Positions 1,232-39,186 are shown, numbered from the stretch's first letter. The stretch is DNA of 64,000 nucleotides from an uncultured Desulfobacter sp. (GCA_963665095.1 OY762069.1:1280001-1344000), one strand, 5' to 3'. Notes: a model not told the origin generated them from the sequence alone. A program made the numbers and translations.

Positions 1232-1258
1232 GTTCTCAGGGCGGGGTGAAATTCCCCA
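1232..1258 (+). repeat. attL core, equal to the first 27 nt of the FMN riboswitch aptamer
   Basis: GTTCTCAGGGCGGGGTGAAATTCCCCA is identical to 39030..39056 and lies about 30 bp from the integrase stop. Confidence 0.95.
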
Positions 1259-1289
1259 GATGATAAGAAAGATGTGGTTATAAATTCAG

Positions 1290-2594
1290 TTATTTAGCTA
1301 TTTTCTGACCGTCTGAAAAGTTTATCAAAAGTTTATCACTTTTAGCGGCGTCTTGCATTTCAGCAAGTTGGCGGGTGGCTGTGATCGCGTCTTGGTGGTC
1401 TGGCAGAAAGTATCTATAAAAGGCGTCTGATGCGTGGCCGGTAACATTGTTTTTAATTTGCTCTGGTGACATGATCCGCCCCAGGGCTGTGGTGGTAGAA
1501 TGCTTTGTGCCTGGGTACACAGGTACAGATTCAATTCCAAGGTTTTTAGCCGCCCTTTTCCACCATTCATTGAAAAGCTGGTCCCCAAACTGCCCGCCGG
1601 CCTTTTTCCCGCGCCCCTGTTTTAGATGCCGGAAAAAATAAACATCCGGCAACGTTGGCGGAGCCATGTTTCTAACCTCCTTGATCATATTTATATGTTC
1701 TGGAAGCAGGTGTATAAATTTAGGGTCACGTTCTTTAGGTTGCGGGAAAACTACCCACCCGTCTGATAAATTAATATGCCCCTCTTTAACATTCCTCATT
1801 TCCCCGGGCCTGACCTTAGGATACATGGATAAGAGCTTTATTCCCAACCATATGCGCGGATTTTTCTTCCATGTCAACCGCCGCAATTCGTCTAAAATCG
1901 CCTGCTGGTCTTCCATGGAAACAAGTGTCCGCATTTTCATGCGATAGCTGATTTCTGGGATATCTGGCATTTCTAATTTTGACCGTCTCTTTTCCCGACG
2001 CACAACCCATTTAAAAAAATCATTTAAAACAGAGCGCATACCGGCCAAGGTCTTTTTTGATATCGGCCCCAGGTCCACCATTTTGGTGGTCCCATCCGGC
2101 ATTCGCCTTTTCTGAATATTGCGATGGTCAAAGGATAGAAAATCATCTATTTCCGCGTCTGAAATCTGCTTGATCTGCAAACAATCCCATATCAACCCGT
2201 GATAATCGCTCTTGAATTCACCGGCCCGAGTAAGAACCTTTTTGATTCTATAAACTTGATCTGGCTTGATATCTTGCGTGGATTTAACTTGGGTGAATTT
2301 TTCGCGCAATGCATAAAAGGATAGCGGGTTTTCTTTCGCCCATTCCCTTTGATCAAACTCCCCCCGGTCTGTTTGTACTCTCAAAAAAGTTAAATGTCTT
2401 TCTGCTTCACCTACGGTTTTAAACCGCTTTGTGTGCTTTTTCCCAAATCGAACTTGACACGGCCCAGCCCATTGAATTTCCTGATGATTGGGGCAAGCCA
2501 TAAATCCCCGCCCCTCAATATACTTTAGTAATCCTTTCTGACCATTCTGCTGACATAGGAAACATTTTTGACTTGTATAAATAGAACCCTTCAT
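1290..2594 (-). CDS. int: Phage integrase (tyrosine recombinase)
   Basis: KVRPGE, PKE, YPGTKHS, TGH and FYRY catalytic-type motifs; adjacent to attL; start taken at MKGSIY (ORF is open to 2660). Confidence 0.85.
   Translation of the reverse strand: MKGSIYTSQKCFLCQQNGQKGLLKYIEGRGFMACPNHQEIQWAGPCQVRFGKKHTKRFKTVGEAERHLTFLRVQTDRGEFDQREWAKENPLSFYALREKFTQVKSTQDIKPDQVYRIKKVLTRAGEFKSDYHGLIWDCLQIKQISDAEIDDFLSFDHRNIQKRRMPDGTTKMVDLGPISKKTLAGMRSVLNDFFKWVVRREKRRSKLEMPDIPEISYRMKMRTLVSMEDQQAILDELRRLTWKKNPRIWLGIKLLSMYPKVRPGEMRNVKEGHINLSDGWVVFPQPKERDPKFIHLLPEHINMIKEVRNMAPPTLPDVYFFRHLKQGRGKKAGGQFGDQLFNEWWKRAAKNLGIESVPVYPGTKHSTTTALGRIMSPEQIKNNVTGHASDAFYRYFLPDHQDAITATRQLAEMQDAAKSDKLLINFSDGQKIAK
1316..1339 (+). 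repeat. Putative integrase arm-type sites (left arm)
   Basis: Tandem AAAAGTTTATC repeated with an 11-bp period; the same GTTTATCA pair occurs at 38963..38985. Confidence 0.55.
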
Positions 2595-2722
2595 ACAATA
2601 CCCGCCTTGATTAAGGTTATTGGCTGGATTGTTGTAAAATGGTTTATAATTCATCGTCAAGATTCGTTTCCCAAATGGTAAACGGCCGGGTAAAAAATAT
2701 ATACCCGGCCACGGGTCTGGAT

Positions 2723-3106
2723 TTATGCCTTATCCATCGTTGATATTTTGAAAGAAAATTCCGTCAATTCTTCCGGAACTTCCATTCCTAAATCTTCATA
2801 AAGCGAAAGCACACCTTTAATAATAGCCGCGAATATTTGGAAAGTTTGCTTCTTGTTTGCTTCATACTCCCTGATCAAATTTTGAACTGTATTTTTAGGT
2901 TCTCTGATGACAACCCTTGCGCCCAAACCAAGGTTAAATTCAGCATTCAGGCGTTTTACATTGGTGGCCCGAACTGGGAAGCCAAGGAACCTTGAGGCCC
3001 TTGCAGCCACGTCTTCCATAGCTACCACGGCCAAGGCGTCATTGTTATCAGTTAAAAATTTATGCAGTTCAACGGTTTGCGGATAGCTCAAAGTGTTCTT
3101 TTTCAT
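2723..3106 (-). CDS. Phage hypothetical protein
   Basis: 127-aa ORF tightly packed in the leftward early operon. Confidence 0.65.
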   Translation of the reverse strand: MKKNTLSYPQTVELHKFLTDNNDALAVVAMEDVAARASRFLGFPVRATNVKRLNAEFNLGLGARVVIREPKNTVQNLIREYEANKKQTFQIFAAIIKGVLSLYEDLGMEVPEELTEFSFKISTMDKA

Positions 3107-3111
3107 AATTT

Positions 3112-3447
3112 TTATATCTCCTTATTTTTAAATCGTCCTTCACTAAGCCTTGCAGGGGCATACCGTTCTATCATGTCTGAATTTGCCCCAAGCTCTTTTA
3201 ATGTGGCCTTTATACTTTGGCCGCCTGGTGCCCAATAACGGTATTTGGCAGGGGCGTTAAAAGGAATGATTAAATCACCATTTCCGCTTATATATGGCGG
3301 CGTCCACCCATCTTTATTATTCGTGCTTTCATGGATGATTTCACAAAGCCATTTAATTTCAAGGGTTTTCATTTCTGCAGGAGACTTGTTCATTAATCCT
3401 GTTTCGTTTAGCCTGGTGGCCAGGTGGTTAAGATTAATATTCATCAA
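3112..3447 (-). CDS. Phage hypothetical protein
   Basis: 111-aa ORF with ATGA overlap to the helicase stop. Confidence 0.65.
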   Translation of the reverse strand: MMNINLNHLATRLNETGLMNKSPAEMKTLEIKWLCEIIHESTNNKDGWTPPYISGNGDLIIPFNAPAKYRYWAPGGQSIKATLKELGANSDMIERYAPARLSEGRFKNKEI

Positions 3448-5105
3448 ACCCCCAAAAAAGATTCAATTTTAGAACGGTTAAAATGAAAGGTGAGATATGC
3501 CGCCGCTTCCCCCTTTGACAGTATGGAAACACCGCCAAACTGGGCTAAGGTTTCCAGTTGCCTGGGGCTTGCCGGATCTGTTGGCCATTTGGCAGCCTTG
3601 CGGCTATTTGATGCTGTTTCGTGTGTCCTCATCCAATCGTCTGCCGTGGCCACGGCCCCAAGCCGGTTAGTTTGGCCAAGGTGTCTGACTTCACGGCCTT
3701 TCCCACCAATTGAATGCCAGCTTTCTGAATCCGGGGAACATATGGCCGCCCAGGCTTCAAAGCCGGTGGCTACCATAAGGTTTTCGCTACCCCATAATGG
3801 ATACCACCGGAACGGACTTTTACTGATTAATTCAATTTCAATTAATCTTAATTCCGCCTCTTCATTGTAAACACCTTCGATCAATTCAACCTTGAATTCA
3901 TACCCGCAAAGGGGGCAAGTCATGGTTTGCACTGGCAACATTGCTTCACAATCCGGGCAGGTTTTTTTCCGGGCTTCAGATTCCTTTCCGGATTCTCCAC
4001 CATCGTCTTTCAGTTTTACAGTGCTGCTCAAATTGCCGATGGATATCAAGGTGATCCCAAAATCAAGCACCAAGCAATCAGACTTGATAAAACCGGGGTG
4101 TTTTTCAGGGTCTACTTTCCTAAGGCCCCGGCCCACCATTTGGATGGCCGTTGACTTATGGCTTGACGTTCTAAGCAGCATAACACAGGAGCATATTTGA
4201 CAGTCCCAGCCTTCCGTTAAAATCATGGGGTTGCACAAGACCGGAATTTCTCCCCGATCAAAGGCGGACAAGATTTCACGGCGGCGTGTAATACCTATTT
4301 TACCGTGAACGGATTCCGCCTCTATTCCGTGTTCTCTGAAAGCATTGCGAACATCTTCCGCGTGCTGAATGGTGGAACAAAAGGCAACCGTGGGGCGGCC
4401 CTGGGCCAGTTCAAGCCATTGGCCAACAATTTGCCCATTGTTATAATTAGTATTTTGGATAGCTTCAACTTCGGCCTGGTCAAAATCATTGGCTGTTTTC
4501 TTAACGTTTTTAAGTTGACTTTGGGTGCCAATATCAATAACCATTGCCGTGGGTGGAACCAGGTGTCCAGCTTGCACCATTTCTTCAATTGTTACCACAT
4601 CGGCGACATTGGAGAACGTTTTCCTCAGGCCCCGCCGGTCTGACCGTTCAGGGGTAGCCGTGACTCCTAAGATTTCAGTCTCCCGGTTGAGTTCCATTGC
4701 GCGGCCGATAACGCGCCTGTATGAATCGCTGGCCGCGTGATGTGCTTCATCAACTACCAGTAAATCAAAAGGCGGCAATGTGGATAGGTGGCTTTCCTGG
4801 CTTAACGTTTGCACCATTGAAAAGACGGTTTGCCCGCCCCAAGATTTGGTTTCAGCGTTAAAAAAGGAAATTGGGATAGTAGGGTTCACCAACTTGAATT
4901 TATCCGAATTCTGCCGGGTCAATTCATCACGGTGGGCCATAATTAAGGCCCGTTTTTGTTTTTTGATACGCTGGCCAGTTGCAGCGGAAAGGGCTATAGT
5001 TTTCCCAAAGCCTGTATTGGCAACCCCCAGGGTGTTCTTTTCTTTGGATAGTGCCTTGCAGCATTTATAAACAAAGATTTTTTGACGGGGTCTAAGAATA
5101 ATCAT
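3444..5105 (-). CDS. SF2 DEAH helicase with zinc ribbon (YejH/RadD-like)
   Basis: LRPRQ, TGFGKT, DEAHH, TATP, QMVGRGLR and CPDC..CPLC motifs; start taken at MIILRP. Confidence 0.9.
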   Translation of the reverse strand: MIILRPRQKIFVYKCCKALSKEKNTLGVANTGFGKTIALSAATGQRIKKQKRALIMAHRDELTRQNSDKFKLVNPTIPISFFNAETKSWGGQTVFSMVQTLSQESHLSTLPPFDLLVVDEAHHAASDSYRRVIGRAMELNRETEILGVTATPERSDRRGLRKTFSNVADVVTIEEMVQAGHLVPPTAMVIDIGTQSQLKNVKKTANDFDQAEVEAIQNTNYNNGQIVGQWLELAQGRPTVAFCSTIQHAEDVRNAFREHGIEAESVHGKIGITRRREILSAFDRGEIPVLCNPMILTEGWDCQICSCVMLLRTSSHKSTAIQMVGRGLRKVDPEKHPGFIKSDCLVLDFGITLISIGNLSSTVKLKDDGGESGKESEARKKTCPDCEAMLPVQTMTCPLCGYEFKVELIEGVYNEEAELRLIEIELISKSPFRWYPLWGSENLMVATGFEAWAAICSPDSESWHSIGGKGREVRHLGQTNRLGAVATADDWMRTHETASNSRKAAKWPTDPASPRQLETLAQFGGVSILSKGEAAAYLTFHFNRSKIESFLGV

Positions 5106-6354
5106 TTTTAACCGGCCCCCCAATGATACCAAGCGTGATACCCGGAACGTCTACCCCCTTTATAATTATAGCGGTTTCCTGGCCATTAGAGAGAATCAGT
5201 TCAAGAGATCCGGGGGCTGATCTTGCAATCATGGCCTTTATGGTATTTACTCTTTCTTCTTTGGCATCATTTACGGTTTTTCTTATATGGTTGTTGACAG
5301 GTTGCGCCATGGCGGCCGGCGATACTGCAGGAGCGGCCGGGCGTGGGGCTACTTTTTTTTCGTTCGGGACCACGGGGGCCGGTTTGGGTTCCTGTTTAAC
5401 CGCCGGCTGTAGCGCCTTAGTTTTATCAATAATCGCCCGGGCCTGGTTTATCTGAGTTTCCACCAATCCGGCAAGATGCGGGGCCGGAATCAAAACTTCA
5501 AGCTTTCCAAGGGCCTCCTCCATGGTTGCAAGGCTGGCCATTATCCCGAAGTTATCATTAAACCAGGCTACTTGATTGACCCGTTCCGATTCTAATTCAA
5601 GTCTTTTTAATTCCGCCTGTTTTTCTTCATGGATAACTGCCGCCTGATGTGCAAGTCTGGCCTTTTCGATGGAAACATTTAAAAGGCCGCAGGCATCTTG
5701 AAATTTTTCCTGGAATATCTCCTGGTTAATGCCTGTTGTTTCCAAAACGCCCAGGGCGCTTTTTATCTCAACCGCAGAAAGGCCAGGTTTTAAGGCATCA
5801 TTGCATAGGTCAACCAAGGTGTTATAATTTTTATTTAAGAGATCTAACCGTATTCTTTCAACCCTGGCCTGTTCATCTTCCCACTTTTTAATTTCAGAGG
5901 ACAAATGATCTTCGGTCGCCTTAATGTCAGTCACCAGGGCGGTAGCATCATCTTTAATGTTTTTTCTCTTTTTATTCAGGTCTGCTATCAACTCCTTTTC
6001 ACGCCGCTGGATTTTCAGGCGTAACCCCCGAACTTCGGTTTTTGCTTTTTTAATTTCAGTGAAAGTTTTTTTGTCCTCAAGATTCACAGTTAGGGATAGA
6101 TATACCTTTATTTCGGCCAGTGCTGCAGCTTGAATGTCATATCGGGTTAGAGCTGTTGGCGGAATGCCGGGCATGATTTCCGCGCGGGCTCCCGGCGTGT
6201 TCGGCGTCGACTGAATCACCTGGGCGGCCTGGGGGGGGGGCTGTTCTTTCAATGGGCCAAAATCCTGCCCACTCACCGGTTTAGCTTTACCCATTGGCAT
6301 CAGTTTTTGACCTGGGCAGGGATAATATTTTCTTCCATTGTTAAAATCACTCAT
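5092..6354 (-). CDS. Coiled-coil phage protein of unknown function
   Basis: 420-aa ORF with a long heptad-rich K/E/A segment and Pro-rich ends; AGGAG upstream. Confidence 0.7.
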   Translation of the reverse strand: MSDFNNGRKYYPCPGQKLMPMGKAKPVSGQDFGPLKEQPPPQAAQVIQSTPNTPGARAEIMPGIPPTALTRYDIQAAALAEIKVYLSLTVNLEDKKTFTEIKKAKTEVRGLRLKIQRREKELIADLNKKRKNIKDDATALVTDIKATEDHLSSEIKKWEDEQARVERIRLDLLNKNYNTLVDLCNDALKPGLSAVEIKSALGVLETTGINQEIFQEKFQDACGLLNVSIEKARLAHQAAVIHEEKQAELKRLELESERVNQVAWFNDNFGIMASLATMEEALGKLEVLIPAPHLAGLVETQINQARAIIDKTKALQPAVKQEPKPAPVVPNEKKVAPRPAAPAVSPAAMAQPVNNHIRKTVNDAKEERVNTIKAMIARSAPGSLELILSNGQETAIIIKGVDVPGITLGIIGGPVKNDYS

Positions 6355-6424
6355 GTGCCTTTTCTCCTTTCGTGTTTAATTACTCGGGTGTTTCCAAAGT
6401 GGTAATTACCCGGGTAAAAAAAGG

Positions 6425-7207
6425 TTATTTATTTGGCATCCATTGCGGTGGTTGGCCAGGACCATTGCATCCTTGTGGGGGTGTTTGGTATTGCTGTGAA
6501 TGTGGCGCTCCTTGTGCCTGGTGTGGTTGCTGGTATGTCTGGCCCGATTGTGCCGATGGGGCCTGATAGGATGGCGGTTGCTGATATCCACCCGCCTGGG
6601 CGGCACCCTGCCCGTTTGCGGCGGGGATTTCTGGCAGGGGTTTATCAGTGATAATCTGTCCACCGGCCATGACCGTTTTATAATCCTGCTCATCTTCAAG
6701 GGTAATTACTTTGAACAGGCTGTTATTAATGTACTGGTCGCCTGGCTGGGGTTTTTTAACGCTCACCATTGCCGGGAACTCCATCCCCTGAAAATGATCT
6801 GGCCCAACCCCTGTTTTTGCCTGCATGGCTTCCGGCGATCCATCGGCTGGATGTATTCCCCGGGCGGCCTCAACAATTGCGCGCATCTTTGCACCGCCGC
6901 CTTTGCAAGTGCCTGCCTGGCCTTTATCTATACCCTGAACCTGCATATTAACTGGAAGAAAAATATAATCATAAAATTTATTCCCATTATATTCGCCTTG
7001 GGAAATTACCTCAAAGACACAATCAAAGCCCACCAGCGGAACCCCACTATTTTTGCCTGGTTTGAATGTTCTGACGAGTGGATGAATGGCGCTTGTGCTG
7101 CCATTATCTGGCTTCCGTATTGAAAGCCGGACCTTGACTATTGATCTGTCAGGAATACAACCGCCCCCGCCGGTTTTCTGTTCTGATTCATTGTTCAAAT
7201 CAAACAT
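6425..7207 (-). CDS. Putative phage ssDNA-binding protein
   Basis: Follows the AAA_24 ATPase; Q/P/G-rich tail ending PPQWM is typical of phage SSB-like proteins. Confidence 0.55.
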   Translation of the reverse strand: MFDLNNESEQKTGGGGCIPDRSIVKVRLSIRKPDNGSTSAIHPLVRTFKPGKNSGVPLVGFDCVFEVISQGEYNGNKFYDYIFLPVNMQVQGIDKGQAGTCKGGGAKMRAIVEAARGIHPADGSPEAMQAKTGVGPDHFQGMEFPAMVSVKKPQPGDQYINNSLFKVITLEDEQDYKTVMAGGQIITDKPLPEIPAANGQGAAQAGGYQQPPSYQAPSAQSGQTYQQPHQAQGAPHSQQYQTPPQGCNGPGQPPQWMPNK

Positions 7208-8045
7208 TGTCTTGATTCTCCTGTTTAATGGTTGCGGGCATGGGATAGCGCCCGTTTGTTGCTTTATTCAGGGCGGTATGGAATCCGCCCCATGTCTTAT
7301 CTTGACCAATGTAAATTTCAGACGGCAGGCCCCAACGGTTTTTAGCCAAAAACGCGGGTCTTTCTTCCGTGTGGATGAGACGTTCCCCGGTACCTGTGCC
7401 GCGTCTTTTTTCTTGGTTGAATCCCGTTTCCGTTCTTTCAATGACAGTTCGATAGCGACAGAACAAAACCATATCAACCCATTCTTGCCAAAGCGCAAAA
7501 GCCCGCTTATGTAATTTAATCTGGTATCTGTCATATGGTTCTGTGTCTGGGGCGGCAAAGTTTTTTATCTCAGAATGGGCGATTAAAATAATATTCATCT
7601 GCTTAACTTTGAGTAAGTGTTCGAGCCAGTTCATAAGGTTTAGCCATGGCGCATCAGCTTCAATATATCCCTTTCCATATCCAAAACTTTCAATACTGTC
7701 TTGACCCTTTGCGGCACAAGTCTGGGAATGTATCAGGGGCTCAGTCCAATCCAGGGAATCAATAACCAGGCTTTTATACTGGTGCGATTCACTGAGAAGC
7801 CACTGAACCATATTGATAATGGTATTGTATCCTGACCCGCGGGCAAGGCGGCCTTCGTCATCATAGCTATCCTTTACAACCATTGGGAATGTATCAATAT
7901 CCACATTGCTGGCCCCGTCTTCCGTCCTCAAAAGAATAGCCCCTTCAAAGGTGGCTCCAAAAGTTGTCTTTCCCAGGCCGTGGGTGCCGTACAATAAAAT
8001 CCTTTGCGGCTGCCATTCGGCGTTAGCTTTAACAGGTTGAAACAT
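7200..8045 (-). CDS. AAA_24 / Sak4-like phage ATPase
   Basis: LYGTHGLGKTT, VIDSLDW, LIAHS and AKNR motifs. Confidence 0.85.
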   Translation of the reverse strand: MFQPVKANAEWQPQRILLYGTHGLGKTTFGATFEGAILLRTEDGASNVDIDTFPMVVKDSYDDEGRLARGSGYNTIINMVQWLLSESHQYKSLVIDSLDWTEPLIHSQTCAAKGQDSIESFGYGKGYIEADAPWLNLMNWLEHLLKVKQMNIILIAHSEIKNFAAPDTEPYDRYQIKLHKRAFALWQEWVDMVLFCRYRTVIERTETGFNQEKRRGTGTGERLIHTEERPAFLAKNRWGLPSEIYIGQDKTWGGFHTALNKATNGRYPMPATIKQENQDNV

Positions 8046-8176
8046 TTCAATCTCCTTGATACTTTTAAATTACAATTAACTTCACGGTATCGTTTACGAT
8101 TTGGTAAAAACAAAGACAAACAAAAAGGGCGGCGCGGCAGGCCGGCCCCATATTCAAAAAAATAAATTGGGCTTTT

Positions 8177-8587
8177 CTATTCTTCCTCTTTTTCTTTTTG
8201 CGCCTTGGCCTTCCTAACGATGCCCATAAGCGCGTCATATGGGTCAATACCCAAGCTTTCTAACTCATGCCATACTTTCCGGGCTTTAGGATTTTTATAA
8301 AATTGCATATCAAGGATATGTGCCTTGCCTGCATCAGACATTTCAACATTTTTAACAATATCTTCCGCCATGATAATCCCTTCTCCTATCAATATGGCCA
8401 AGTGTTTTTCAGTCACAGGGCGGCCATATTTCTCGAAATTTTTAAGTTCAGTGAAGCGGGTTTGAACAATGCCAGTTTTTTCTGATAATTCTTTGTCGAG
8501 CCAACCGTCATCATTTAACCGTTCAAGTTTTTTACCAAGATATACTGTGATATCTTCATACAATTTTTTTTTGTCAATTTTCCGCAT
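8177..8587 (-). CDS. Probable phage repressor (XRE-type HTH)
   Basis: DKELSEKTGIVQTRFTELKN is HTH-like; first leftward gene at the divergent control region; start taken at MRKIDK. Confidence 0.55.
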   Translation of the reverse strand: MRKIDKKKLYEDITVYLGKKLERLNDDGWLDKELSEKTGIVQTRFTELKNFEKYGRPVTEKHLAILIGEGIIMAEDIVKNVEMSDAGKAHILDMQFYKNPKARKVWHELESLGIDPYDALMGIVRKAKAQKEKEEE

Positions 8588-8649
8588 TTTGAATACCCTT
8601 TCAAGTTTATTTCTTTTATTTTTTTGCTTGTCTTTTTTCACACAGTTTC

Positions 8650-8770
8650 CTTTTAGCACGTGGATTTTTTTAATGTCAAGATAATTTACCAAATAATTTA
8701 CATTTTAATTTACCAAATAATTTACCAAACGGTATTGACATTTACCAAATTGTAAACTATACGGTGAAAT
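8650..8770. promoter_or_regulatory. Divergent immunity region with promoters and operator repeats
   Basis: Four ATTTACCAAA copies; TTGACA at 8735-8740 (+) with TTTAC-N6-GTAAA in its spacer; TTGACA on the minus strand at 8674-8679. Confidence 0.7.
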
Positions 8771-8800
8771 ATCGGGAAAAACCAAGTAGGGAAACGTCAA

Positions 8801-9163
8801 ATGAATGATTTAGAAATCAAGGAAAATATGTATCTTGGGGCTTTATGTCGCCGTGGCCATGATTATCAGGGCACAGGTTGTTCAGTAAGATACAAAAACA
8901 AGGGGGCATTAAAGGGCGGCATCTGTATTCTCTGCAATCGTGAAAATAAACGGAAGAATGCAAAGGCGAAAGGCGGGGCCGGGAAACGGCGCGGTAAAAA
9001 TACCCGAATATCCGCAATCTGCCCCATGTGTAGAGCTATACACATGGTTTATATGGCAAGTGGTTGGGCAGGTAACGGTATCCCCAGAAAATACTGCCCG
9101 AATTGCAACGGACAAAGAAAGAGATTGATAGAGGGGGAAATCAATTATGGCTATACAAATTGA
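8801..9163 (+). CDS. Cys-rich, probably zinc-binding phage protein
   Basis: CRRGH, CILC, CPMC and CPNC motifs; first rightward early gene. Confidence 0.65.
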   Translation: MNDLEIKENMYLGALCRRGHDYQGTGCSVRYKNKGALKGGICILCNRENKRKNAKAKGGAGKRRGKNTRISAICPMCRAIHMVYMASGWAGNGIPRKYCPNCNGQRKRLIEGEINYGYTN

Positions 9164-9379
9164 GAAAGGCATTACCCGGATTTTCCTTTTAGCTGCTCTT
9201 TTTTTCTGGCCGTTTGGGTCGGTATACTATAAGTCGAGCATAACCGGACCGCTGCCCGTCTGGCCCTGGAAACAGAAAAGGTAAACGCTTTATATGTCAC
9301 CTTGAAACATTCAACTTTTGAGGTTTCCATAATCCCCACCAAGGCCCCAAAAGCATTAAAACCAAAAGAATGGAAATAA
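9147..9379 (+). pseudogene. Possible disrupted small membrane-anchored protein gene
   Basis: MAIQIEKG... has an RBS; a shift at the T7 run (9199-9205) plus readthrough of TAA 9230 would give a frame ending just before the ATG at 9381. Confidence 0.3.
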
Positions 9380-9380
9380 T

Positions 9381-10118
9381 ATGTTTAATCTTAATTCTGA
9401 AACAGATGTTTCCGCCCCCATAAATTACCTGATTGATTCAGCCCTTGAACTTGAGGAAGCTTTTTCAACGAAACGAAATTACCTGGGCGGCAGCCGGTTG
9501 GGCGTCCACTGTGAACGGGCTTTGCAATACGAGTTCACACACTACCCAGTAGACCCGGACAAGAGATTTCAGGGGCGTATTTTACGGGTGTTTTCAAGGG
9601 GCCATTGGGTTGAAGGTCTTATTATTGATTGCCTGAAAAAAGCTGGTTTTGGCATTATTACGGAATCGCGGGACGGCGGGCAATTCGGGTTTGTTTCCCA
9701 TGATGGCTATGTAAAAGGTCATTGTGACGGAATAATTTTGACCGGCCCGGAGCATTTAGGCCCATGGCCACGCTTGTGGGAATGTAAAGGCCTTGGCGCA
9801 AAATATTGGCGCGCCCTTGTTAAGCACAGGCTTAAAAAAGATAAACCAATTTATTACGCCCAGGTTCAGTTCTATATGGGGAAATTCGGCTTATCCGATA
9901 ATCCGGCAATTTTCTGCGCGGTGAACATGGATACAATGGAATTATATTGGGAAAGCGTGCCTTTTGACCCCGTTTTTTTTGATTCCTTGGAAAAAAAAGC
10001 TTGGCGGATTATTGATGCCTGCAGGGCTGAAAGCTTACTTCCCAGAGATAGCCAGGACCGAAATTTTTATAAATGTAAACTATGTTCATGGCGGATTGCT
10101 TGCCATGGGCCGGAATAA
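9381..10118 (+). CDS. Cas4-like PD-(D/E)XK exonuclease
   Basis: GHCDG..WECK, QVQFYM, an N-terminal Cys plus C-terminal CKLC-x5-C Fe-S pattern. Confidence 0.85.
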   Translation: MFNLNSETDVSAPINYLIDSALELEEAFSTKRNYLGGSRLGVHCERALQYEFTHYPVDPDKRFQGRILRVFSRGHWVEGLIIDCLKKAGFGIITESRDGGQFGFVSHDGYVKGHCDGIILTGPEHLGPWPRLWECKGLGAKYWRALVKHRLKKDKPIYYAQVQFYMGKFGLSDNPAIFCAVNMDTMELYWESVPFDPVFFDSLEKKAWRIIDACRAESLLPRDSQDRNFYKCKLCSWRIACHGPE

Positions 10119-10201
10119 ACTCGTTTAATGATAGGGGGGTGGAAAGAAGTATGAATAAGAATAAAAAAGCAATTTCATTCGTTAAAAGCCTGTCTATGGA
10201 A

Positions 10202-10259
10202 TATACCGGATAATCCTTTATGAGACTAAGCCGGAAACAACACGGATTTTAATATATTA
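10202..10259 (+). repeat. 58-bp direct repeat, copy 1
   Basis: TATACCGGATAATCCTTTATGAGACTAAGCCGGAAACAACACGGATTTTAATATATTA is identical to 11037..11094. Confidence 0.95.
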
Positions 10260-10265
10260 AATGTA

Positions 10266-11048: not shown

Positions 11049-11094
11049 TCCTTTATGAGACTAAGCCGGAAACAACACGGATTTTAATATATTA
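11037..11094 (+). repeat. 58-bp direct repeat, copy 2
   Basis: Identical to 10202..10259; contains the MTase stop codon. Confidence 0.95.
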
Positions 11095-11310: not shown

Positions 11311-11320
11311 TTCTTGTATC

Positions 11321-22710: not shown

Positions 22711-22713
22711 CGC

Positions 22714-26427: not shown

Positions 26428-26428
26428 T

Positions 26429-26829: not shown

Positions 26830-26858
26830 ATGCCCCCGAAGATCAGGAGCGTGAAAAC

Positions 26859-29364: not shown

Positions 29365-30365
29365 GACAGGCCTTTTTAGATTTGACATATGATGGGCGTG
29401 ATATCAGCCGGGATATTTCAGGATTTTTGATAGACTTTTCCTATACTGATTACATTGGCGGCAAGGCAGATGATTTGCAAATCACGGTTGAAAACCGGGC
29501 TGGGCTTTGGTCTGGATCCTGGTTTCCTGGTAAGGGTGCTATGCTAACCGCGTCAATCAAAAGCAGCTTGTGTGGCAAGGACTCTATTTTAAAATGTGGT
29601 GTTTTTGCCGTGGATGAAATCACAGCCCAAGGGCCGCCCGATACAGTTACTATAAAAGCCGTTTCCAGCTTAACCGCCAAGGCTTTTAAGCGTGTGAATA
29701 AATCCAGGCCCTGGCAAAGCATCACTTTAAAAACGATCATGAATGATATAGCGACGGAACACAGCCTTGGTGCTTTTTTCCAGGCAAGTGAAGACCCGCA
29801 ATATATCCGGCTTGATCAGAAAGAGGAATCAGACCTTGCCTTTTTAAACCGGATTTGCCGTGAAAATGATTTATCTTTAAAAGTATCAGACGAAAAAATC
29901 ATTATCTTTGAAGGCAAACAGCTTGAACAGGTGGCCCCGGTTCGAATCGTTGAAAAAGGTGTAAGCGATCTATCCAGATACACCTTGAAGTCAAAAACTT
30001 TTGATGTTTATCGGGCCTGTGAAATTACTTACATGGACCCGACTGAGAAGGCAGAGAAAACTTTCACCTTCACCCCGCCTGGTGCTCCTGATGTTGGCCA
30101 GGTTTTAAAATTAAACAGACGGGTGGAGAGTTTAGCCCAGGCTGAAAGGGTGGCCATGGGTAGCCTGAAGCGAAAAAACCAAGAGGAAATAACCGGAAAC
30201 TTTGATCTGATGGGAGATACTGTTCTATTGGCCGGCTTGACCCATGCCGTTAATGGCTTTGGTGCTTTTGATGGAAAGTATATCATTGATGAAGCCAGGC
30301 ACAGCAGTGACAAGGACGGCGGATATTCAACGGCAATTAAATCAAGGAAGGTTTTAGGGTGGTGA
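29352..30365 (+). CDS. Baseplate hub / late control D protein
   Basis: QKEESDLAFLNR motif. Confidence 0.88.
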   Translation: MAKIRQAFLDLTYDGRDISRDISGFLIDFSYTDYIGGKADDLQITVENRAGLWSGSWFPGKGAMLTASIKSSLCGKDSILKCGVFAVDEITAQGPPDTVTIKAVSSLTAKAFKRVNKSRPWQSITLKTIMNDIATEHSLGAFFQASEDPQYIRLDQKEESDLAFLNRICRENDLSLKVSDEKIIIFEGKQLEQVAPVRIVEKGVSDLSRYTLKSKTFDVYRACEITYMDPTEKAEKTFTFTPPGAPDVGQVLKLNRRVESLAQAERVAMGSLKRKNQEEITGNFDLMGDTVLLAGLTHAVNGFGAFDGKYIIDEARHSSDKDGGYSTAIKSRKVLGW

Positions 30366-30366
30366 T

Positions 30367-30825
30367 ATGATCCGGGATCTTGAAAAAAGAATTATGGCCC
30401 TTGAAACCAGGTTAAATCAAATGATCCGGATTGGAAAAGTTTCTACTATTGACCCTGCAGCGGGAACCGCCCGGGTAATCCTTCCTGATTCTGGCGGGGT
30501 CGTTTCCTATGATTTGCCTATCCTTTTCAAGAAAACACAGAATGATAAATATTATTCAATGCCGGATATCGGGGAGCAAGTTTTGTGTTTGTTCCTTCCC
30601 AACGGCCAGGAACAAGGCTTTATTATAGGCTCTTTTTTTTCCCAAATTGATTCCACGCCGGTAAACGATCCGGATAAAACGCATGTTAAGTTCAGGGACA
30701 ATACGAGCATGGAATATGACCGTAAAAAACATAGATTGACAGTTAATATAAAGGGGCGGGTCTTAGTGAATGCTACGGGGCCGATTGAAATAATCGGATC
30801 AACAATAGATTTGAACAGGGGATAA
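30367..30825 (+). CDS. Baseplate spike protein V
   Basis: IRIGKVS, PDIGEQVLCL and YDRKKH. Confidence 0.88.
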   Translation: MIRDLEKRIMALETRLNQMIRIGKVSTIDPAAGTARVILPDSGGVVSYDLPILFKKTQNDKYYSMPDIGEQVLCLFLPNGQEQGFIIGSFFSQIDSTPVNDPDKTHVKFRDNTSMEYDRKKHRLTVNIKGRVLVNATGPIEIIGSTIDLNRG

Positions 30826-31140
30826 ATGGCAGCGATCACACGTAACGGGGATCTTTCCATGGGCATATGTGCATGTTGTTGTCCGTCATGCCCCCATGGG
30901 TGGGTCAGTGTGCATGTGGGCGGTAGCTCTAATGTTCGGGCCAACAACATGGGTGTTATGAGGGATCAGGATATAGGCGTGTCAAATTGCCCGCATTGCC
31001 CTACATCGTTTGCCGTTACGGCATCCCGGACTGTTCGGGCCAATGGCCGGGGCGTGCACCGGTTAGGTGATGTGCATAATGTTGCTTGTGGCAGCGGCCT
31101 TGTTATTTCTGCTTCATCTAATATTTTTGCGGGGGTTTAA
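30826..31140 (+). CDS. PAAR-type spike tip protein
   Basis: TRNGD, SNVRAN and HRLGD repeats; Cys/His rich; follows gpV. Confidence 0.8.
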   Translation: MAAITRNGDLSMGICACCCPSCPHGWVSVHVGGSSNVRANNMGVMRDQDIGVSNCPHCPTSFAVTASRTVRANGRGVHRLGDVHNVACGSGLVISASSNIFAGV

Positions 31141-31142
31141 AC

Positions 31143-32039
31143 ATGTCTGAATTTGCCATAGAGGTGAATGAATCAAAGCTTGGATTTGCTGTTTTATGTA
31201 AGTGCCTTGATCTTCATCACATTGCTGTGACGTTGCGTGATCTCGGTTTAGCTGAATTTTTTCCAGATGTATCCATTCAATTTAAGGATGTTTGTTCGGT
31301 ACTTAGATTTGGCGTCAGCGCAAAAATTGCCTGGACCGGGCAGTCAATGACCAAGGCGGATTCTGTGCCGGATGACACCCGGGTACCGGCAACGGTAGAA
31401 ATCAATGACGCCCTTATCAGCTTGATGTATAACGCAGCCGTAGCAAAAGGCATCACTCTTTCTGAATCATATGTATTCACAGCAGTGGACGGCGAATACA
31501 TAGAAGCATCAAAAACATGGTCAGGCGCAGCAAAAATATATCTTGATATGATGTCTTTGGCTGATGAGCTTACCATGTTTAAAATTGTATTCGGTGATTT
31601 GTACTTGGGCACAGTAGATATTAATCGCAGTCCTGGGCAGGTGATCCCGTTCGCGAGTTGTCCGCTGCCACTGGCCCATACTGCAGTGGGTTTTTCTATT
31701 GCAAACTGGTCCGGGATAAAGGCGGCGGCTGGGGATTACATCAATAACCTAATGCGCTTACCTGCTCTGGATGTTTTCGCGTTGTCTCCTGGTGAACTAT
31801 CCACAAGTGTTTCAAGCATTACCGTTTCAGGCGTTGTTCACCCTTCAGACGCGACTTTAACTATTTTTGACTGTTCTGCAGGTGGGGCTATTATTGCCGT
31901 CATGGAAGCGGAAGGATCAAACGGGGTTCAGTTTGCATCCGGAACATGGTTGTCTGGCGCATCTGTCCGGGTGGTTGTGGCCACGGCATCCGCCCCGTCA
32001 TCAATCACTTTCACTGTATTGACTATGGCCGCTTTATGA
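31143..32039 (+). CDS. Hypothetical protein inside the baseplate module
   Basis: 298-aa ORF coupled to both neighbours; no recognised motif. Confidence 0.6.
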   Translation: MSEFAIEVNESKLGFAVLCKCLDLHHIAVTLRDLGLAEFFPDVSIQFKDVCSVLRFGVSAKIAWTGQSMTKADSVPDDTRVPATVEINDALISLMYNAAVAKGITLSESYVFTAVDGEYIEASKTWSGAAKIYLDMMSLADELTMFKIVFGDLYLGTVDINRSPGQVIPFASCPLPLAHTAVGFSIANWSGIKAAAGDYINNLMRLPALDVFALSPGELSTSVSSITVSGVVHPSDATLTIFDCSAGGAIIAVMEAEGSNGVQFASGTWLSGASVRVVVATASAPSSITFTVLTMAAL

Positions 32040-32419
32040 TTGGTACATTTGGAAATATTGCTTTCGAAACCAGCACGAAAAAGGTTTTAACTTTTGATGA
32101 GTTCGAAAGGGTGACCGCCGCTATTTTCGCAGAACACAAGGTTATTGATCAAAAGCCAAAGCTACAGCTTACCGGCCTTGCTTTGGACCAAATTACTTTT
32201 TCCATTTTCCTATCTGCATTCCTGGGCGTTGACCCTGCAGATGAAATCCAAAGTTTTAAAGAGATTGCGGCCAAGGGTGAGGCTAGAAAATTAATTATGG
32301 GCGGGCAAGTTGTTGGGGATTTTGTCCTTGTAAACATGACAGAAAAATGGAGCCATGTAAACGCCAGGGGTAAAGTGGTAACAGCCATGCTTAATATCAC
32401 CTTAAAGGAATATGTCTGA
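32036..32419 (+). CDS. P2 gpU-like tail protein
   Basis: MIGTFGNIAF and EH.VI..KP.LQ.TG. Confidence 0.85.
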   Translation: MIGTFGNIAFETSTKKVLTFDEFERVTAAIFAEHKVIDQKPKLQLTGLALDQITFSIFLSAFLGVDPADEIQSFKEIAAKGEARKLIMGGQVVGDFVLVNMTEKWSHVNARGKVVTAMLNITLKEYV

Positions 32420-32745
32420 TGGAATTAGATATAACCGCAACCATGGAGACAATAGAGATCGGCGCCACCGGGGCAACGGAAATTATCCAGAATGTAAAAA
32501 CCATTATTTCCACAATCCGTGGAACGGTGCCCCTTGATAGAACCTTCGGTATCAGTTGGGATTTTATTGATATGCCCGCCCCTGCATCCCGGGCTGCTTT
32601 TATCGCTGAAATTGTGGAGGAAGTTGAAAAGCAGGAGCCCCGCGTAAATGTGATAAGCGTTTCATGGGATGAAGATCAGGCCAAAGAAATGGACGGAAAA
32701 CCTACGCCAACGATTAAAATAAAAATCAAGGATGAATATTTATGA
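32419..32745 (+). CDS. Baseplate wedge gpW/gp25-like
   Basis: GTVPLDRTFG and EPRV. Confidence 0.85.
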   Translation: MELDITATMETIEIGATGATEIIQNVKTIISTIRGTVPLDRTFGISWDFIDMPAPASRAAFIAEIVEEVEKQEPRVNVISVSWDEDQAKEMDGKPTPTIKIKIKDEYL

Positions 32746-33848
32746 TTGCGGATATCAGTTTTTGTGAAACAGACACGGCCACGGTTGAACAGTCCATTAT
32801 AGATATTTACGAAGGCATAACGGGGGCAACATTATACCCGGGTGATCCGGTGCGGCTGTTTTTGGAATCCCTTGCAGCTGTCATAGGGCAACAAAGGGTC
32901 ATTATTGACCAGGCAGGAAAATCAAATTTGGTCAATTATGCAAGGGAAGCGTATCTTGATCATATTGGGGCTATGACTGATACCCCAAGGCTTGAGATGG
33001 CAAAGGCAATAGTGAAGGTCCGGTTTGTATTGTCTGGTGTGCTTGGTAGTGTAACCCCCATTGCAAAGGGCGTCAGGGTTTCACCGGACGGGAAAATATT
33101 CTTTGAAACTGTTGCGGCTGCAGAGATCCCGGCGGGGGAATCTTCTCTTGTGATTGATTGTCAATGTACGGAAGCCGGGGCGCTTGGAAACGGTTTTTTA
33201 CCCGGTCAAATAACCAAGCTGGTTGACCCTATTCCTTATGTTGCTAGCGTGATCAATACCACAGAAACAACCGGCGGCGCAGATTTGGAGACCGATGCCG
33301 CATATGTCGAAAGGATTATTCTTGCCCCTGAAAAATATTCTGTTGCCGGGCCTGATGGCGCCTATCAGTACTGGGCTAAAACAGCCAACCAAAATATAAT
33401 TGACATTGCCACCTTTTCCCCATCCCCTGGTGTGGTCAATGTTATCCCCCTGGCCCTGGGTGGAACCCTTCCGGATGATGAAATTTTAACCGCTGTTGGC
33501 AACCTTTTAAACAGGCGTGACAAGCGCCCATTGACAGATAGTATACAAGTCTTGCCACCCAATCAGATTAATTACGATATATCATTAACTTATTATATTG
33601 CAGTTTCTGATATTCCCTTGGTTGCCCAGATCCAAGCAAATGTTAACGCTGCAGTTGAAAACTTTAAGGCGTGGCAGAAATCTAAGCTTGGGCGGGATAT
33701 TAACCCCAGCGTTTTGACACAATACATAATGGGCGCCGGGGCAAAAAGAGTTTCGATTATTTCTCCTACTTATGCCGCCCTTGAACCTAATCAGGTGGCG
33801 AATGATGTAACTATGACTATTACCTATGGTGGGATCGAAGATGAGTAA
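32742..33848 (+). CDS. Baseplate J protein
   Basis: GGADLETD, SVAGPDGAY and RPLTD motifs. Confidence 0.92.
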   Translation: MIADISFCETDTATVEQSIIDIYEGITGATLYPGDPVRLFLESLAAVIGQQRVIIDQAGKSNLVNYAREAYLDHIGAMTDTPRLEMAKAIVKVRFVLSGVLGSVTPIAKGVRVSPDGKIFFETVAAAEIPAGESSLVIDCQCTEAGALGNGFLPGQITKLVDPIPYVASVINTTETTGGADLETDAAYVERIILAPEKYSVAGPDGAYQYWAKTANQNIIDIATFSPSPGVVNVIPLALGGTLPDDEILTAVGNLLNRRDKRPLTDSIQVLPPNQINYDISLTYYIAVSDIPLVAQIQANVNAAVENFKAWQKSKLGRDINPSVLTQYIMGAGAKRVSIISPTYAALEPNQVANDVTMTITYGGIEDE

Positions 33849-34485
33849 AAGTCTAAAAGAGATTAATTTTCTTGACCTGTTGCCGTCTTCAATTTCTGGT
33901 GACGAAAAAATGAAAGCGGCCGCGCTGGCGCTTAACGCAGAGCTTTCATATCTAAATGATAAGACGGATTTGATATTTCTTTGGTCAAGAATTGACACCA
34001 TAGAGGAGCCGCTCATATCTGCCCTTGCTTACCAGATGCATGTTGACTATTGGGACGATAATTTTTTATTTGATCAAAAAAGGGAAATTGTAAAAACGTC
34101 TATTGCCTGGCACCGGATCAAAGGCACCCGGGCGGCTGTTGATAAAATGCTTGCTTTTGTTATAGGCGGCGGGGTGGCGGAAGATTGGCACGAATATGGC
34201 GGAGAGCCCTTCTATTTTCGAATTGTCACCACGGAAAGCCTAGTCAATCAGGAAACTTTTGAAAAGAAATTAATCCCGGCAATCAATCGGGCAAAAAATA
34301 CCCGGTCATGGTTGGAAGAAATTATTGTTGATCGTGATATCTCCGGAGACCTTTTCTTTGGCCTTGGGATCGTTCAGAGAAAAAAAATCACAATTGGTTT
34401 TGCCCTCAACATTGCGCCCCAAGAGGATAGGTTTATTGGGTTAGCGTTGAGGATCGGCAAAAGAATAACAATTAACGCAGCATAA
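33841..34485 (+). CDS. Tail protein I (P2-like)
   Basis: LAYQMHVD, HRIKGT..AV and AKNTRSWL. Confidence 0.88.
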   Translation: MSKSLKEINFLDLLPSSISGDEKMKAAALALNAELSYLNDKTDLIFLWSRIDTIEEPLISALAYQMHVDYWDDNFLFDQKREIVKTSIAWHRIKGTRAAVDKMLAFVIGGGVAEDWHEYGGEPFYFRIVTTESLVNQETFEKKLIPAINRAKNTRSWLEEIIVDRDISGDLFFGLGIVQRKKITIGFALNIAPQEDRFIGLALRIGKRITINAA

Positions 34486-34496
34486 AGGAGTGTTTA

Positions 34497-35552
34497 ATGT
34501 CTGGTTTTTCTGCCAACTACTTAACGCTAAAGGGTATAGCGTTACAATCCAAGGCGCAAACCGGGGTACAATTACAATTCACCCGGATTGGCATCGGTGA
34601 CGGTGTTTTGCCCGATGGTCAGGCGTTGCGGGATTTGACAGCCCTGTTACATGAAAAAATATCAGTACCCATTCAGGAATTAGAGGTTGTTGGGAATGGG
34701 ACAAGTCGCCTAAATTTCCTTTTAACCAATAAGGACCGGACTGAAGGGGTCTTTATTCGGGAGATCGGAATTTTTGCGATGGACCCAGACGAGGGAGAAA
34801 TTCTATATGCCATAACATACGCTGGTGACAAATATGATTATCTCCCCCCGGATGGCGAAGCAACGGCCGTTTCCCAGGATGTTGATATTTATACTATCAT
34901 CGGGAATGCCCCGAATGTAACGGCGGTTTTTGCCCAGGTGGCAGCCATTGATGTGGATGTAAAACAGCATCTTGTTGAAGCGGCAACGGCAAACGGGCAG
35001 ACTGATTTTATTTTGCCATGGCCATATAACCCCCGCCGCCCCAACCTGGCGGTTTATCGGGATGGGGTCAAGCAGATTCGTGGTATCCATTGGGACCCAC
35101 CACCGGCGGAAGCGGAAGCGGAAACAAGCACAACGGTGATTTTTAAGGCACCCCTGGCAGGCCTGGTTGATGGCCTTGAATTCTTTTCCATCCCCGTGGC
35201 TGCTGGGACGCATAAGGTTGCAACGGTCTGGCATAAAGCGGCGGACTACACAATCACAAATGGAAACAACGGGCATGTTCTGACCAATCGTGATTGTACT
35301 ACTGCAATGATATTCACTCTGGATTCAATGATTTCCGTTGGGATGCGTGTCACGGTGGCCAAACTTGCGGCCTATGACGTAACCGTCCAGGCCCCGGCCG
35401 GGGAAAGCATCATTGATAGTATTGCCGGGGGTTATATTCAGAATATAGATGATTCCCAGGTGGGTGCCACGCTTAGCTTGATCAAAGTGAGTGACACGCT
35501 TTGGACAGTAGAGCGGGGTTTCGGAACATGGTCAACAAATAACGGGGAATAG
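34497..35552 (+). CDS. Tail fibre protein
   Basis: N-terminal LTLKG..IGIGDG..IREIGIFA..GEILYA baseplate-binding domain. Confidence 0.85.
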   Translation: MSGFSANYLTLKGIALQSKAQTGVQLQFTRIGIGDGVLPDGQALRDLTALLHEKISVPIQELEVVGNGTSRLNFLLTNKDRTEGVFIREIGIFAMDPDEGEILYAITYAGDKYDYLPPDGEATAVSQDVDIYTIIGNAPNVTAVFAQVAAIDVDVKQHLVEAATANGQTDFILPWPYNPRRPNLAVYRDGVKQIRGIHWDPPPAEAEAETSTTVIFKAPLAGLVDGLEFFSIPVAAGTHKVATVWHKAADYTITNGNNGHVLTNRDCTTAMIFTLDSMISVGMRVTVAKLAAYDVTVQAPAGESIIDSIAGGYIQNIDDSQVGATLSLIKVSDTLWTVERGFGTWSTNNGE

Positions 35553-35556
35553 AATT

Positions 35557-36339
35557 ATGAACGATTTTAATTTTGGGTATGCGGTTGAGGTTTCCACCCA
35601 TAAAAAAGTTGTAAAGTTTACTGCATCCGGGGTTTGGACGGTGCCAGCAGACGTGGAAGTTATTGAAGCTGTGATCGTTGGCGGAGGCGGCTCCGGTGGG
35701 TTTTGTTCGCAGTATGCCGGTGGAGGCGGAGGCGGTTGTATTCGCTGGCAGAAAATCCCTGTTGTTGGGCTATCATCCATTCCTGTGGTTGTAGGTGTCG
35801 GCGGCGCTGCATTAACCGCTGTGGGGGATGGCAACGATGGCGGGGACTCCTATGTATTAAGCGATATTTATTTAGCGCCTGGGGGCAAGGGCGGGAAATC
35901 ATATCAGGGTGCCAGTGCAGCGATCCAGGGTGGTTATGGCGGCGGTTTTTCTATAACCGATGTTGTGAACAATACTTATGGCGTGCTCACCACCACTTCG
36001 GGCGGGGCGATGGGTAATGAGGCAGCAACAGCATCCCCCGCAGTCAATGCTGGTATTATTAGATCCTTTGGCTGGGGGGCTTATTGCTCCGGCGGACAAG
36101 GAGGGCATGGATACAATTCTGCCGTCGGAGCTAACGGGGGCAGTAATCCCTTTGGTAATGGCGGGACTGGCCTGACAGATACGCAACGGCTTGGCGGCGG
36201 CGGCGCAAGCTTCGGCCCAGGGGGTGATTATGGTTCAGATGTCCCTGCCGGGTCAATCGGCGGCGGATCTGGTGCGGCCCATGCGCTACACGGCCCGTCT
36301 GGTCCAGGGGCCAATGGCGCTGTTTATATTTTTTATTAA
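35557..36339 (+). CDS. Glycine-rich tail fibre-associated protein
   Basis: FTASGVWTVP..VGGGGSGG..GGGGGG..GANGAVYI. Confidence 0.75.
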   Translation: MNDFNFGYAVEVSTHKKVVKFTASGVWTVPADVEVIEAVIVGGGGSGGFCSQYAGGGGGGCIRWQKIPVVGLSSIPVVVGVGGAALTAVGDGNDGGDSYVLSDIYLAPGGKGGKSYQGASAAIQGGYGGGFSITDVVNNTYGVLTTTSGGAMGNEAATASPAVNAGIIRSFGWGAYCSGGQGGHGYNSAVGANGGSNPFGNGGTGLTDTQRLGGGGASFGPGGDYGSDVPAGSIGGGSGAAHALHGPSGPGANGAVYIFY

Positions 36340-38632: not shown

Positions 38633-38685
38633 ATTGCGCTCTCCCCTCTTTATATAGAAATGTTTTTTGAACTTTAATATGACAA

Positions 38686-38762
38686 TGCGGGCCGCATCCA
38701 GGTTGACAGATCGGAAACCATAGGAAACCGACGGGCACAGAACCCCCCGAACACGGCCCGCA
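38686..38762 (-). ncRNA. C4-like antisense RNA
   Basis: 14-bp closing stem (its G-U pairs form only on the minus strand), two inner hairpins, and unpaired segments complementary to upstream 38777..38803. Confidence 0.6.
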
Positions 38763-38962
38763 ATAATGGACCGCGCTTATGGTTTTTCCGGCTGTCAACC
38801 CGGGACCGGAATTTTATCCGATCATCGGTTGTATGGCACATAAGAAATATGGAAGTCAAGAATATAAAAACATCAAAAGACGGAGAATTTATTCCCTGTT
38901 ATATCAATATTTGTTAGTCCAGCGCCTTTTTTTACCATGTGGGAGACGTTTGATTTTTAAAA

Positions 38963-38985
38963 AAAGTTTATCAGAGGTTTATCAA
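38963..38985 (+). repeat. Putative integrase arm-type sites (right arm)
   Basis: AAAGTTTATCAGAGGTTTATCAA; same motif and 11-bp period as 1316..1339. Confidence 0.55.
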
Positions 38986-38988
38986 GGG

Positions 38989-39017
38989 TTGACACCCGGG
39001 CTGAAAAGCCTTAATCT
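38989..39017 (+). promoter_or_regulatory. Phage-encoded replacement promoter for the riboswitch-ribB leader
   Basis: TTGACA (38989-38994), 17-bp spacer, TAATCT (39012-39017). Confidence 0.6.
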
Positions 39018-39029
39018 GCCCGGGTTTTT

Positions 39030-39056
39030 GTTCTCAGGGCGGGGTGAAATTCCCCA
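39030..39056 (+). repeat. attR core
   Basis: Identical to 1232..1258. Confidence 0.95.
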
Positions 39057-39186
39057 CCGGCGGTAACCTGAACACCATGGCGCAAGCCATCAGGAAAGCC
39101 CGCGAGCGCTCTGCTTTTGATACAGAGGTCAGCAGATCCGGTGAAACTCCGGAGCCGACGGTGACAGTCCGGATGGAAGAGAATAA
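39030..39186 (+). ncRNA. FMN riboswitch (RFN element)
   Basis: AGGGCGGGGTGAAATTCCCCACCGGCGGT..AGCCCGCGAGCG..GTCAGCAGATCCGGTGAAACTCCGGAGCCGACGGT..AGTCCGGATGGAAGAGAA, upstream of ribB. Confidence 0.97.

Follow-up and report, generated by a model that had tools for sequence, protein, structure and literature searches.

A flavin mononucleotide riboswitch upstream of ribB as the probable attachment site of a Desulfobacter prophage

The DNA analysed here, called the window, is a stretch of 64,000 nucleotides (nt) from an uncultured Desulfobacter sp. (GCA_963665095.1 OY762069.1:1280001-1344000; genome G000, 6.9 Mb in a single contig), in which a prophage of about 37.8 kb lies between a host AAA ATPase gene and ribB, at the riboswitch for flavin mononucleotide (FMN) preceding the latter. 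The prophage is bounded by a 27-bp direct repeat, GTTCTCAGGGCGGGGTGAAATTCCCCA, whose copies at 1232-1258 and 39030-39056 are 100% identical at a spacing of 37,798, and the 6.9-Mb genome holds no third match with up to 5 substitutions permitted. The locus comprises the following features.

55..1038, minus strand: host AAA ATPase gene, left flank (PF07728); genes 80-82% identical abut the FMN riboswitch at loci L099 and L101-L104
1232..1258, plus strand: core of the left attachment site (attL), an FMN aptamer stub with the 5′ strand of stem P1, junction J1/2 and the P2 hairpin (repeat and Rfam alignment)
1247-1253, plus strand: 7-nt loop in the attL core, the presumed overlap region (register alignment)
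1290..2594, minus strand: tyrosine integrase P0001, 434 residues, stop codon 31 bp from attL (PHROG_1, E 6.5e-12)
39030..39056, plus strand: core of the right attachment site (attR), the 5′ aptamer end supplied by the phage, loop at 39045-39051
39026..39188, plus strand: reconstituted complete FMN aptamer (RF00050, 115.3 bits against a gathering cut-off of 66.2; model positions 1-138, the full length)
39341..39997, plus strand: ribB, 3,4-dihydroxy-2-butanone 4-phosphate synthase (PF00926, E 2.4e-79)

The right copy of the repeat is the 5′ start of the riboswitch, the single FMN match that Rfam returns genome-wide, and ribB downstream provides the riboflavin-gene context. The left copy is a stub that departs from the aptamer directly after the P2 hairpin. 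The split RNA is restored by the element's own fragment, with a full aptamer at attR and the stub at attL. A preliminary description of the window had read the repeat as the 5′ end of the aptamer upstream of ribB, truncated at attL and rebuilt at attR, and the exact repeat, the Rfam alignment and the PF00926 match bear this out; of the prophage limits given there (1232..39186) the left one stands, whereas the true span is 1232-39056, position 39186 being approximately the end of the aptamer. Since no tRNA or transfer-messenger RNA (tmRNA) gene lies within the 64-kb window and the target is the FMN riboswitch, the element behaves like a tRNA/tmRNA island yet falls outside the Islander definition. 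The integration is real, site-specific and gene-restoring, and its evolutionary route is unusually clear. We consider it probable, with good confidence, that the riboswitch is the true attachment site, that a Desulfobacteraceae integrase subclade derived from tmRNA T-arm integrases recombines across the 7 bp of the T-loop in FMN L2, and that a phage promoter then serves ribB.

Relatives of the host preserve the uninterrupted locus. Counting G000, 22 of the 25 genomes in the genus have one full FMN aptamer, and in each of the 21 besides G000 ribB lies downstream; at five of these 21 congener loci the AAA ATPase is directly upstream of the riboswitch, which is the ATPase-riboswitch-ribB adjacency that the preliminary description had predicted for empty sites. 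A 22-nt pattern from the FMN 5′ end matches in 43 of 161 genomes of the family, in two copies only in G000 and G028, and these two are also the only genomes, among 43 with a homologue, whose integrases are at least 78% identical. In G028 an integrase 78% identical to P0001 stands beside its own FMN stub, at the same stub-to-stop distance as in G000. The repeat there measures 31 bp, with TGGAATT instead of TGAAATT as the loop in each copy, and attL adjoins a host gene that is prs-like by sequence. A Rep-like open reading frame (ORF), a repressor-like one and a gene for a sensor-type protein, unlike the genes of the G000 prophage, identify a different element. The L2 loop itself varies among congeners (L084-L104: TGAAATT, CGAAATT, TGGAATT, TGCAATT, TGGAACT, CGGAATT); if the loop is the overlap region, any one phage attachment site (attP) would suit only part of the hosts.

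The ancestry of the integrase was approached through homologue loci pooled from four scans and two genome searches, 103 of them with a C-terminal match and 85 distinct (L023 and L127, without the C-terminus, and L024 and L025, below the cut-off, were excluded). A pattern search within 200 bp of the stop codon assigned 61 of the 85 to a tmRNA/tRNA T-arm, the two being pooled because the pattern confuses them (many were confirmed by ARAGORN and Rfam), and two to FMN; 20 matched neither and two had no flank. Six of the 22 loci lacking a nearby target have a tmRNA/tRNA attachment site farther away, which leaves 16 of 85 without an assigned target, and Rfam returned no riboswitch at 11 loci without a pattern-assigned one. 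Scanning homologue flanks for FMN, as the preliminary description had proposed, was positive at 2 of 85 loci, including the stub in G028; the broad family mostly targets tmRNA/tRNA T-arms, and the use of FMN is confined to a small subclade of it. Assigned targets of the direct relatives include tmRNA, tRNA-His and tRNA-Lys. At L051, the locus of a distant homologue (32%), arm repeats are present together with an IHF-like site (IHF, integration host factor), but the sequence at the expected core position is neither tRNA, tmRNA nor FMN.

The 52 rows of the tree were drawn from 33 distinct loci (at least 350 residues, at least 40% identity) and 13 proteins lacking DNA context, with 6 distant rows besides. 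Five of the DNA-less proteins group with both FMN integrases at a support of 100/100, and P0007 joins them at 100/99; this FMN clade is sister to the tmRNA pair L002/L003 (99/96) and nested among tmRNA/tRNA-targeting rows. G000 itself also holds a 61%-identical integrase at the 3′ end of tmRNA, where a 26-bp repeat begins at the T-stem. This sister integrase (G000:C1:2179714-2180910) belongs to a 22.6-kb element (G000:C1:2158346-2180956) in which a further integrase-like gene, transposase-like ORFs and one primase-like gene also occur. Wider sampling gave no locus in viral-contig scans with P0001 or with the close-clade alignment, and no additional close member in an order-wide sample of 401 genomes. 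The metagenome scan returned six loci, the single close match being the G028 integrase again, and the viral-contig scan with the FMN 5′ pattern six loci, all full aptamers and none with a P0001-type integrase. L121 was rejected as an FMN case: an unrelated integrase ends 195 bp upstream of the riboswitch, but a tRNA-like end intervenes.

The two target types can be superimposed. Attachment sites from all distinct loci of at least 48% identity with a nearby antisense target (31 sites) were aligned on the 7-nt loop, and the IHF-like motif was defined as a regular expression with two mismatches allowed. The elements concerned in the window are these.

1281..1294, plus strand: IHF-like site, 27 bp past the 7-nt loop (register alignment), named from its likeness to the IHF consensus
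1321..1338, plus strand: paired arm-type repeats TTTATCA, 11-bp period, within the integrase 3′ coding region
38967..38984, plus strand: paired arm-type repeats TTTATCA, 11-bp period, attR side

The motif starts 27 bp from the loop in 27 of the 31 sites (FMN 2/2, tmRNA/tRNA 25/29) and 28 bp from it in one, and is unmatched in three. Arm repeats flank both direct-repeat cores, keep step with the IHF-like site across the aligned sites, and are common to the tmRNA-targeting sisters L002/L003. The FMN loop TGAAATT occupies exactly the register position of the tmRNA loop TTCAACT, and around it the repeat extends 15 bp upstream and 5 bp downstream for FMN against 3 bp upstream and 16 bp downstream for the tmRNA sister. 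Such mirror-image extents are predicted if crossover occurs in the loop and the short end of the RNA is 5′ rather than 3′. PMC4383910 describes T-loop crossover subsites for tRNA-gene (tDNA) islands, and 10.1101/2022.12.26.521914 reports T-loop motifs of consensus (YGNRA)NY in FMN riboswitch terminal loops. The FMN L2 loop of the window fits this consensus. Given the established chemistry of tyrosine recombinases, the site is most likely recognised as double-stranded DNA with dyad symmetry around a 7-bp spacer; the preliminary description was right in taking the riboswitch as the site, and its picture of a hairpin in the landing pad is the less likely part.

The fold of P0001 is that of a tyrosine recombinase and comprises arm-binding, core-binding and catalytic domains. 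Its model reaches a predicted local distance difference test (pLDDT) score of 91, and in Foldseek it matched lambda Int (E 1.3e-8), XerA (1e-8) and the integron integrase IntI; the Pfam search of P0001 gave no match. The catalytic box is a variant one (R262, K287, Y360, K364, H387, Y395, residue roles presumed from known motifs): R262, K287, H387 and Y395 are conserved, and the HxxR box is replaced by YxGTKH (Y360/K364) across the whole integrase family. The N-terminus is Cys/His-rich throughout the family (C11, C14, C34, H37), possibly a zinc site. Two insertions in the core-binding domain, of 8 residues (about 126-133) and 19 residues (158-176), are restricted to the FMN clade in an alignment of 13 rows. 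The longer one is modelled as a basic beta-hairpin immediately ahead of helix 180-205, which presumably faces the core DNA, and the insertions may have helped the change of target.

The competitor that survives best keeps the riboswitch as attachment site and differs in mechanism only. According to it, the integrase continues to read a generic GGG-N7-CCC core, attP merely captured the FMN overlap and 5′ sequence, and the insertions are incidental. The GGG-N7-CCC core is common to both targets, arm repeats and IHF register are the same as in the tmRNA sisters, and the family moves among tmRNA and several tRNAs without insertions. Against it, the branch of the FMN clade is well supported and shows changes in predicted DNA-facing helices besides the two insertions, and the core arms of tmRNA reach a GCGGG/CCCGCC-type symmetry that FMN is without. 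We regard relaxed specificity as possible and rather unlikely, and retain the specific retargeting of the subclade as the preferred account.

Integration at the 5′ end of a leader also concerns its promoter, for which two candidates are placed as follows.

1196..1224, plus strand: original host promoter of ribB, TTGACA-17-TAGGAT, stranded at attL and directed antisense toward the integrase 3′ end (10/12 consensus match)
38989..39017, plus strand: putative phage-supplied ribB promoter, TTGACA-17-TAATCT, at -45 (read from sequence)

The promoter scan found 2 against 1.3 in shuffles, and its call at 1196-1224 is weak taken alone; twelve of the 21 congener FMN loci have TTGAC at the matching -40 position. 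This promoter, omitted in the first reading of the window, is now 38 kb from ribB. The repeat begins close to the presumed start of its transcript, and a search for a terminator behind the attL stub was negative. From its position, and from the need for one, the phage sequence at 38989..39017 is proposed as the replacement, and ribB in the lysogen is probably transcribed from it. Stem P1 folds with 9 bp at attR compared with 6 bp in the rebuilt host version; overall energies are equal (-59.6, -59.8), and so no regulatory shift is shown.

The same right end recurs in five congener loci (L084, L086, L087, L089, L091), with TTGAC at -45/-46 and a TA-x-x-x-T box 17 bp on. Aligned to the phage right end, these five upstream regions score 10-33 and the other 16 loci at most 1; the TTTATCA pair (chance about 3e-4 per 130 nt) is strict in three of the five, looser in the fourth and reduced to a single copy in the fifth. 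We suggest that they may be relics of insertions whose left end was lost while the phage-type promoter was retained for ribB. The alternative is that they represent a host promoter allele once captured by a phage, the host promoter never having been replaced there. For it speaks that the five genomes yielded no second FMN stub and no close integrase, three of the assemblies being fragmented, that TTGAC stands at -47 to -49 in other congeners without arm repeats, and that the phage-side promoter region of G028 resembles that of the host by eye, a pair outside the alignment-score comparison. It is opposed by the paired TTTATCA, which is the arm motif within the integrase gene and in the tmRNA sisters, by extra genes of 2.8 and 5 kb between ATPase and riboswitch in G029 and G037, and by the absence of the motif from all 20 FMN loci examined outside the genus (20 of 21 fetched). 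A captured host allele appears decidedly unlikely. The genes between ATPase and FMN in G029 (L113) and G037 (L107) are cargo-like, and among them are a Uma2-like ORF and a pair of ORFs similar to a nuclease effector and an immunity protein. At L112 (G045), the 10 kb upstream of the putative relic attR contain two pieces of group II introns along with transposase-like ORFs.

Still less probable, to the point of being very improbable, is a one-off integration by an ordinary tmRNA phage at a secondary site, with no FMN-specific lineage behind it. Occupied examples are few, and the tmRNA site of the genome is already taken by the sister element; an off-target event would, however, leave a tmRNA fragment and a short repeat, whereas the element carries a 27-bp piece of FMN and no tmRNA 3′ fragment occurs within the prophage, a different element with a 78%-identical integrase does the same in another species, and a matching right end is found at FMN in five further genomes. 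An assembly artefact or chance repeat, entertained in the preliminary description as a way in which the proposal could fail, has a negligible chance in view of the single-contig genome, a contig of run X2 that covers attL without a break (X2 may be the source data), the independent G028 with its own loop variant, and the empty sites in relatives.

Several points weigh against the integration, retargeting and promoter exchange preferred here. P0007 has both insertions yet shows tmRNA-clade residues at other positions. The tree is midpoint-rooted and comes without a one-clade test, and DNA context is at hand for 2 of 8 insertion-clade proteins (P0003, P0005, P0006, P0007, P0122 and P0123 are protein only). 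Both FMN-occupied cases belong to one genus, and the ends of the G028 element are on separate contigs, the link between them being a deduction. The -10 box of the phage promoter matches at only 3/6 positions and was not called by the promoter scan; transcription from phage DNA, like the FMN response in the lysogen, is predicted. Contigs from 4 of 16 sequencing runs contained no attP or attB (host attachment site) junction, though contigs drop rare forms.

Starting from the repeat, its boundaries, the empty sites, the second occupied genome, the tree position and the shared register, the course of integration may be reconstructed as follows. GGGG/CCCC would serve as inverted core-binding sites, and strand exchange would take place within the 7-bp loop in a complex assembled with help from IHF and the arm sites; the two core-binding-domain insertions may have aided the retargeting from tmRNA to FMN. 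With a crossover about 20 bp into the RNA, it is the upstream piece that the element must bring, in a mirror image of tmRNA islands; its P arm would supply this piece, since it contains the 5′ strand of P1 and a sequence resembling a promoter. After integration, ribB would have a complete FMN-sensing leader transcribed from phage DNA, with the host promoter facing the integrase gene. Later decay of the left end could let the phage-type promoter persist as that of ribB, as the five right ends suggest.

The likeness to tRNA/tmRNA islands as described by Islander (PMC4383910) includes an integrase adjoining the attachment site, restoration of the RNA by a carried fragment and, presumably, crossover at the T-loop 7-mer. 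The difference is that the target here is a cis-regulatory mRNA leader of which the 5′ fragment is displaced, hence the replacement of the promoter as well; a 5′ fragment is involved in only 159 of 3919 Islander islands. The nearest published case appears to be phiEf11 in ffs (4.5S signal recognition particle RNA) of Enterococcus faecalis, which (PMC12540744) has a 27-bp attachment core in a structured non-tDNA RNA that is partly reconstituted; ffs differs in that its RNA acts in trans and the gene is altered at the 3′ end. The pipeline of that study included the FMN model, and no FMN insertion is reported in the passages and four supplements searched. Pneumococcal prophages in csRNA genes, cited there, likewise use a small regulatory RNA as attB, that of a trans-acting sRNA and not a ligand-binding riboswitch. 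With lambda Int (PDB 1Z1B), P0001 shares the fold, paired arm sites, an IHF-like site and a 7-bp spacer between inverted cores; it differs in having about 12% identity and YxGTKH instead of HxxR.

A literature search (riboswitch with att, integrase or prophage; Desulfobacter prophages) that covered subscription journals thinly found no publication on a riboswitch attB, and TIGER tables could list such sites as intergenic. Riboswitch targets are not named in TIGER/Islander 2025 (PMC12424338), nor in the available parts of ProBord (PMC13626063) and Integrase-On-Demand (PMC12884075); one ProBord supplementary file, possibly incomplete, has no match for riboswitch, FMN, ribB or Desulfobacter. Island finders built on tDNA fragments miss sites of this kind, and surveys probably class them as intergenic, a share of 22.8% (PMC12424338) or 17.5% (PMC13626063) in which more may hide.

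The importance of our study lies in extending the range of RNA elements known to serve as attB to cis-acting riboswitches, and in making a change of integrase target traceable, from tmRNA T-loop to FMN T-loop with the register kept. The 61%-identical pair of integrases with different targets in one genome renders the specificity switch directly testable. The locus further suggests how a phage can rewire the regulatory leader of a housekeeping gene, and offers those who engineer sulfate reducers a landing site that is conserved and leaves the gene intact. More tentatively, and with the balance tilting against it, riboswitch T-loop hairpins might constitute a general, overlooked class of attachment site one short step from tRNA/tmRNA T-arms, with the present lineage placing ribB under a longer P1 and a phage promoter, the latter having reached fixation in roughly a quarter of the genus once the elements had decayed.

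The remainder of the prophage is of myovirus type, with lambda-type packaging, contractile tail, replication genes and endolysin by Pfam and PHROG profiles.

2723..16215: recombination, replication and nucleotide genes and endolysin (helicase, Sak4, Cas4-like exonuclease, DNA methylase, primase-helicase, ThyX, deoxyguanosine triphosphate diphosphohydrolase)
16445..36339, plus strand: virion module with lambda-type terminase, portal, protease-capsid and contractile tail (sheath, tube, tape measure, baseplate, fibres)
38681..38767, minus strand: C4-type antisense RNA at the right prophage end, 260 bp inside attR (RF01695, 48 bits against a cut-off of 45)

Head, tail, replication and lysis genes form a complete set by profile search, in which neither a holin nor a repressor was named among the prophage proteins, and GenBank phages gave no match. 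A c4-2 match occurs in the related element L012 as well. Near-palindromes of the type TTTACC-A-x-GGTAAA at 2667, 8093, 8721, 8741, 11882, 14727, 16277 and 22500, chiefly intergenic, are probably repressor operators; they cluster where genes diverge, at 8692/8801. A perfect 58-bp direct repeat (10202-10259 / 11037-11094) brackets the C5 DNA methylase gene at 10266-11048 in the manner of an excisable cassette, and a similar sequence is found at G000:C1:5206269-5206346. Among the right-end genes, 37175-37546 has a weak prokaryotic phospholipase A2 match, below the cut-off.

Contigs of runs X7 and X11 match 300-1258 (3 of 959 letters differ in X11), three records from them extending 1-4 letters off the window, and 1310-3300 is without cover in both; the pattern fits empty sites in near-identical strains, the missing cover itself proving nothing, and cover in run X6 is patchy and uninformative. 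Beyond ribB, 45175-55378 holds a PfaD-like gene and a 2575-residue polyketide/fatty acid synthase, resembling a cluster for polyunsaturated fatty acids or hydrocarbons.

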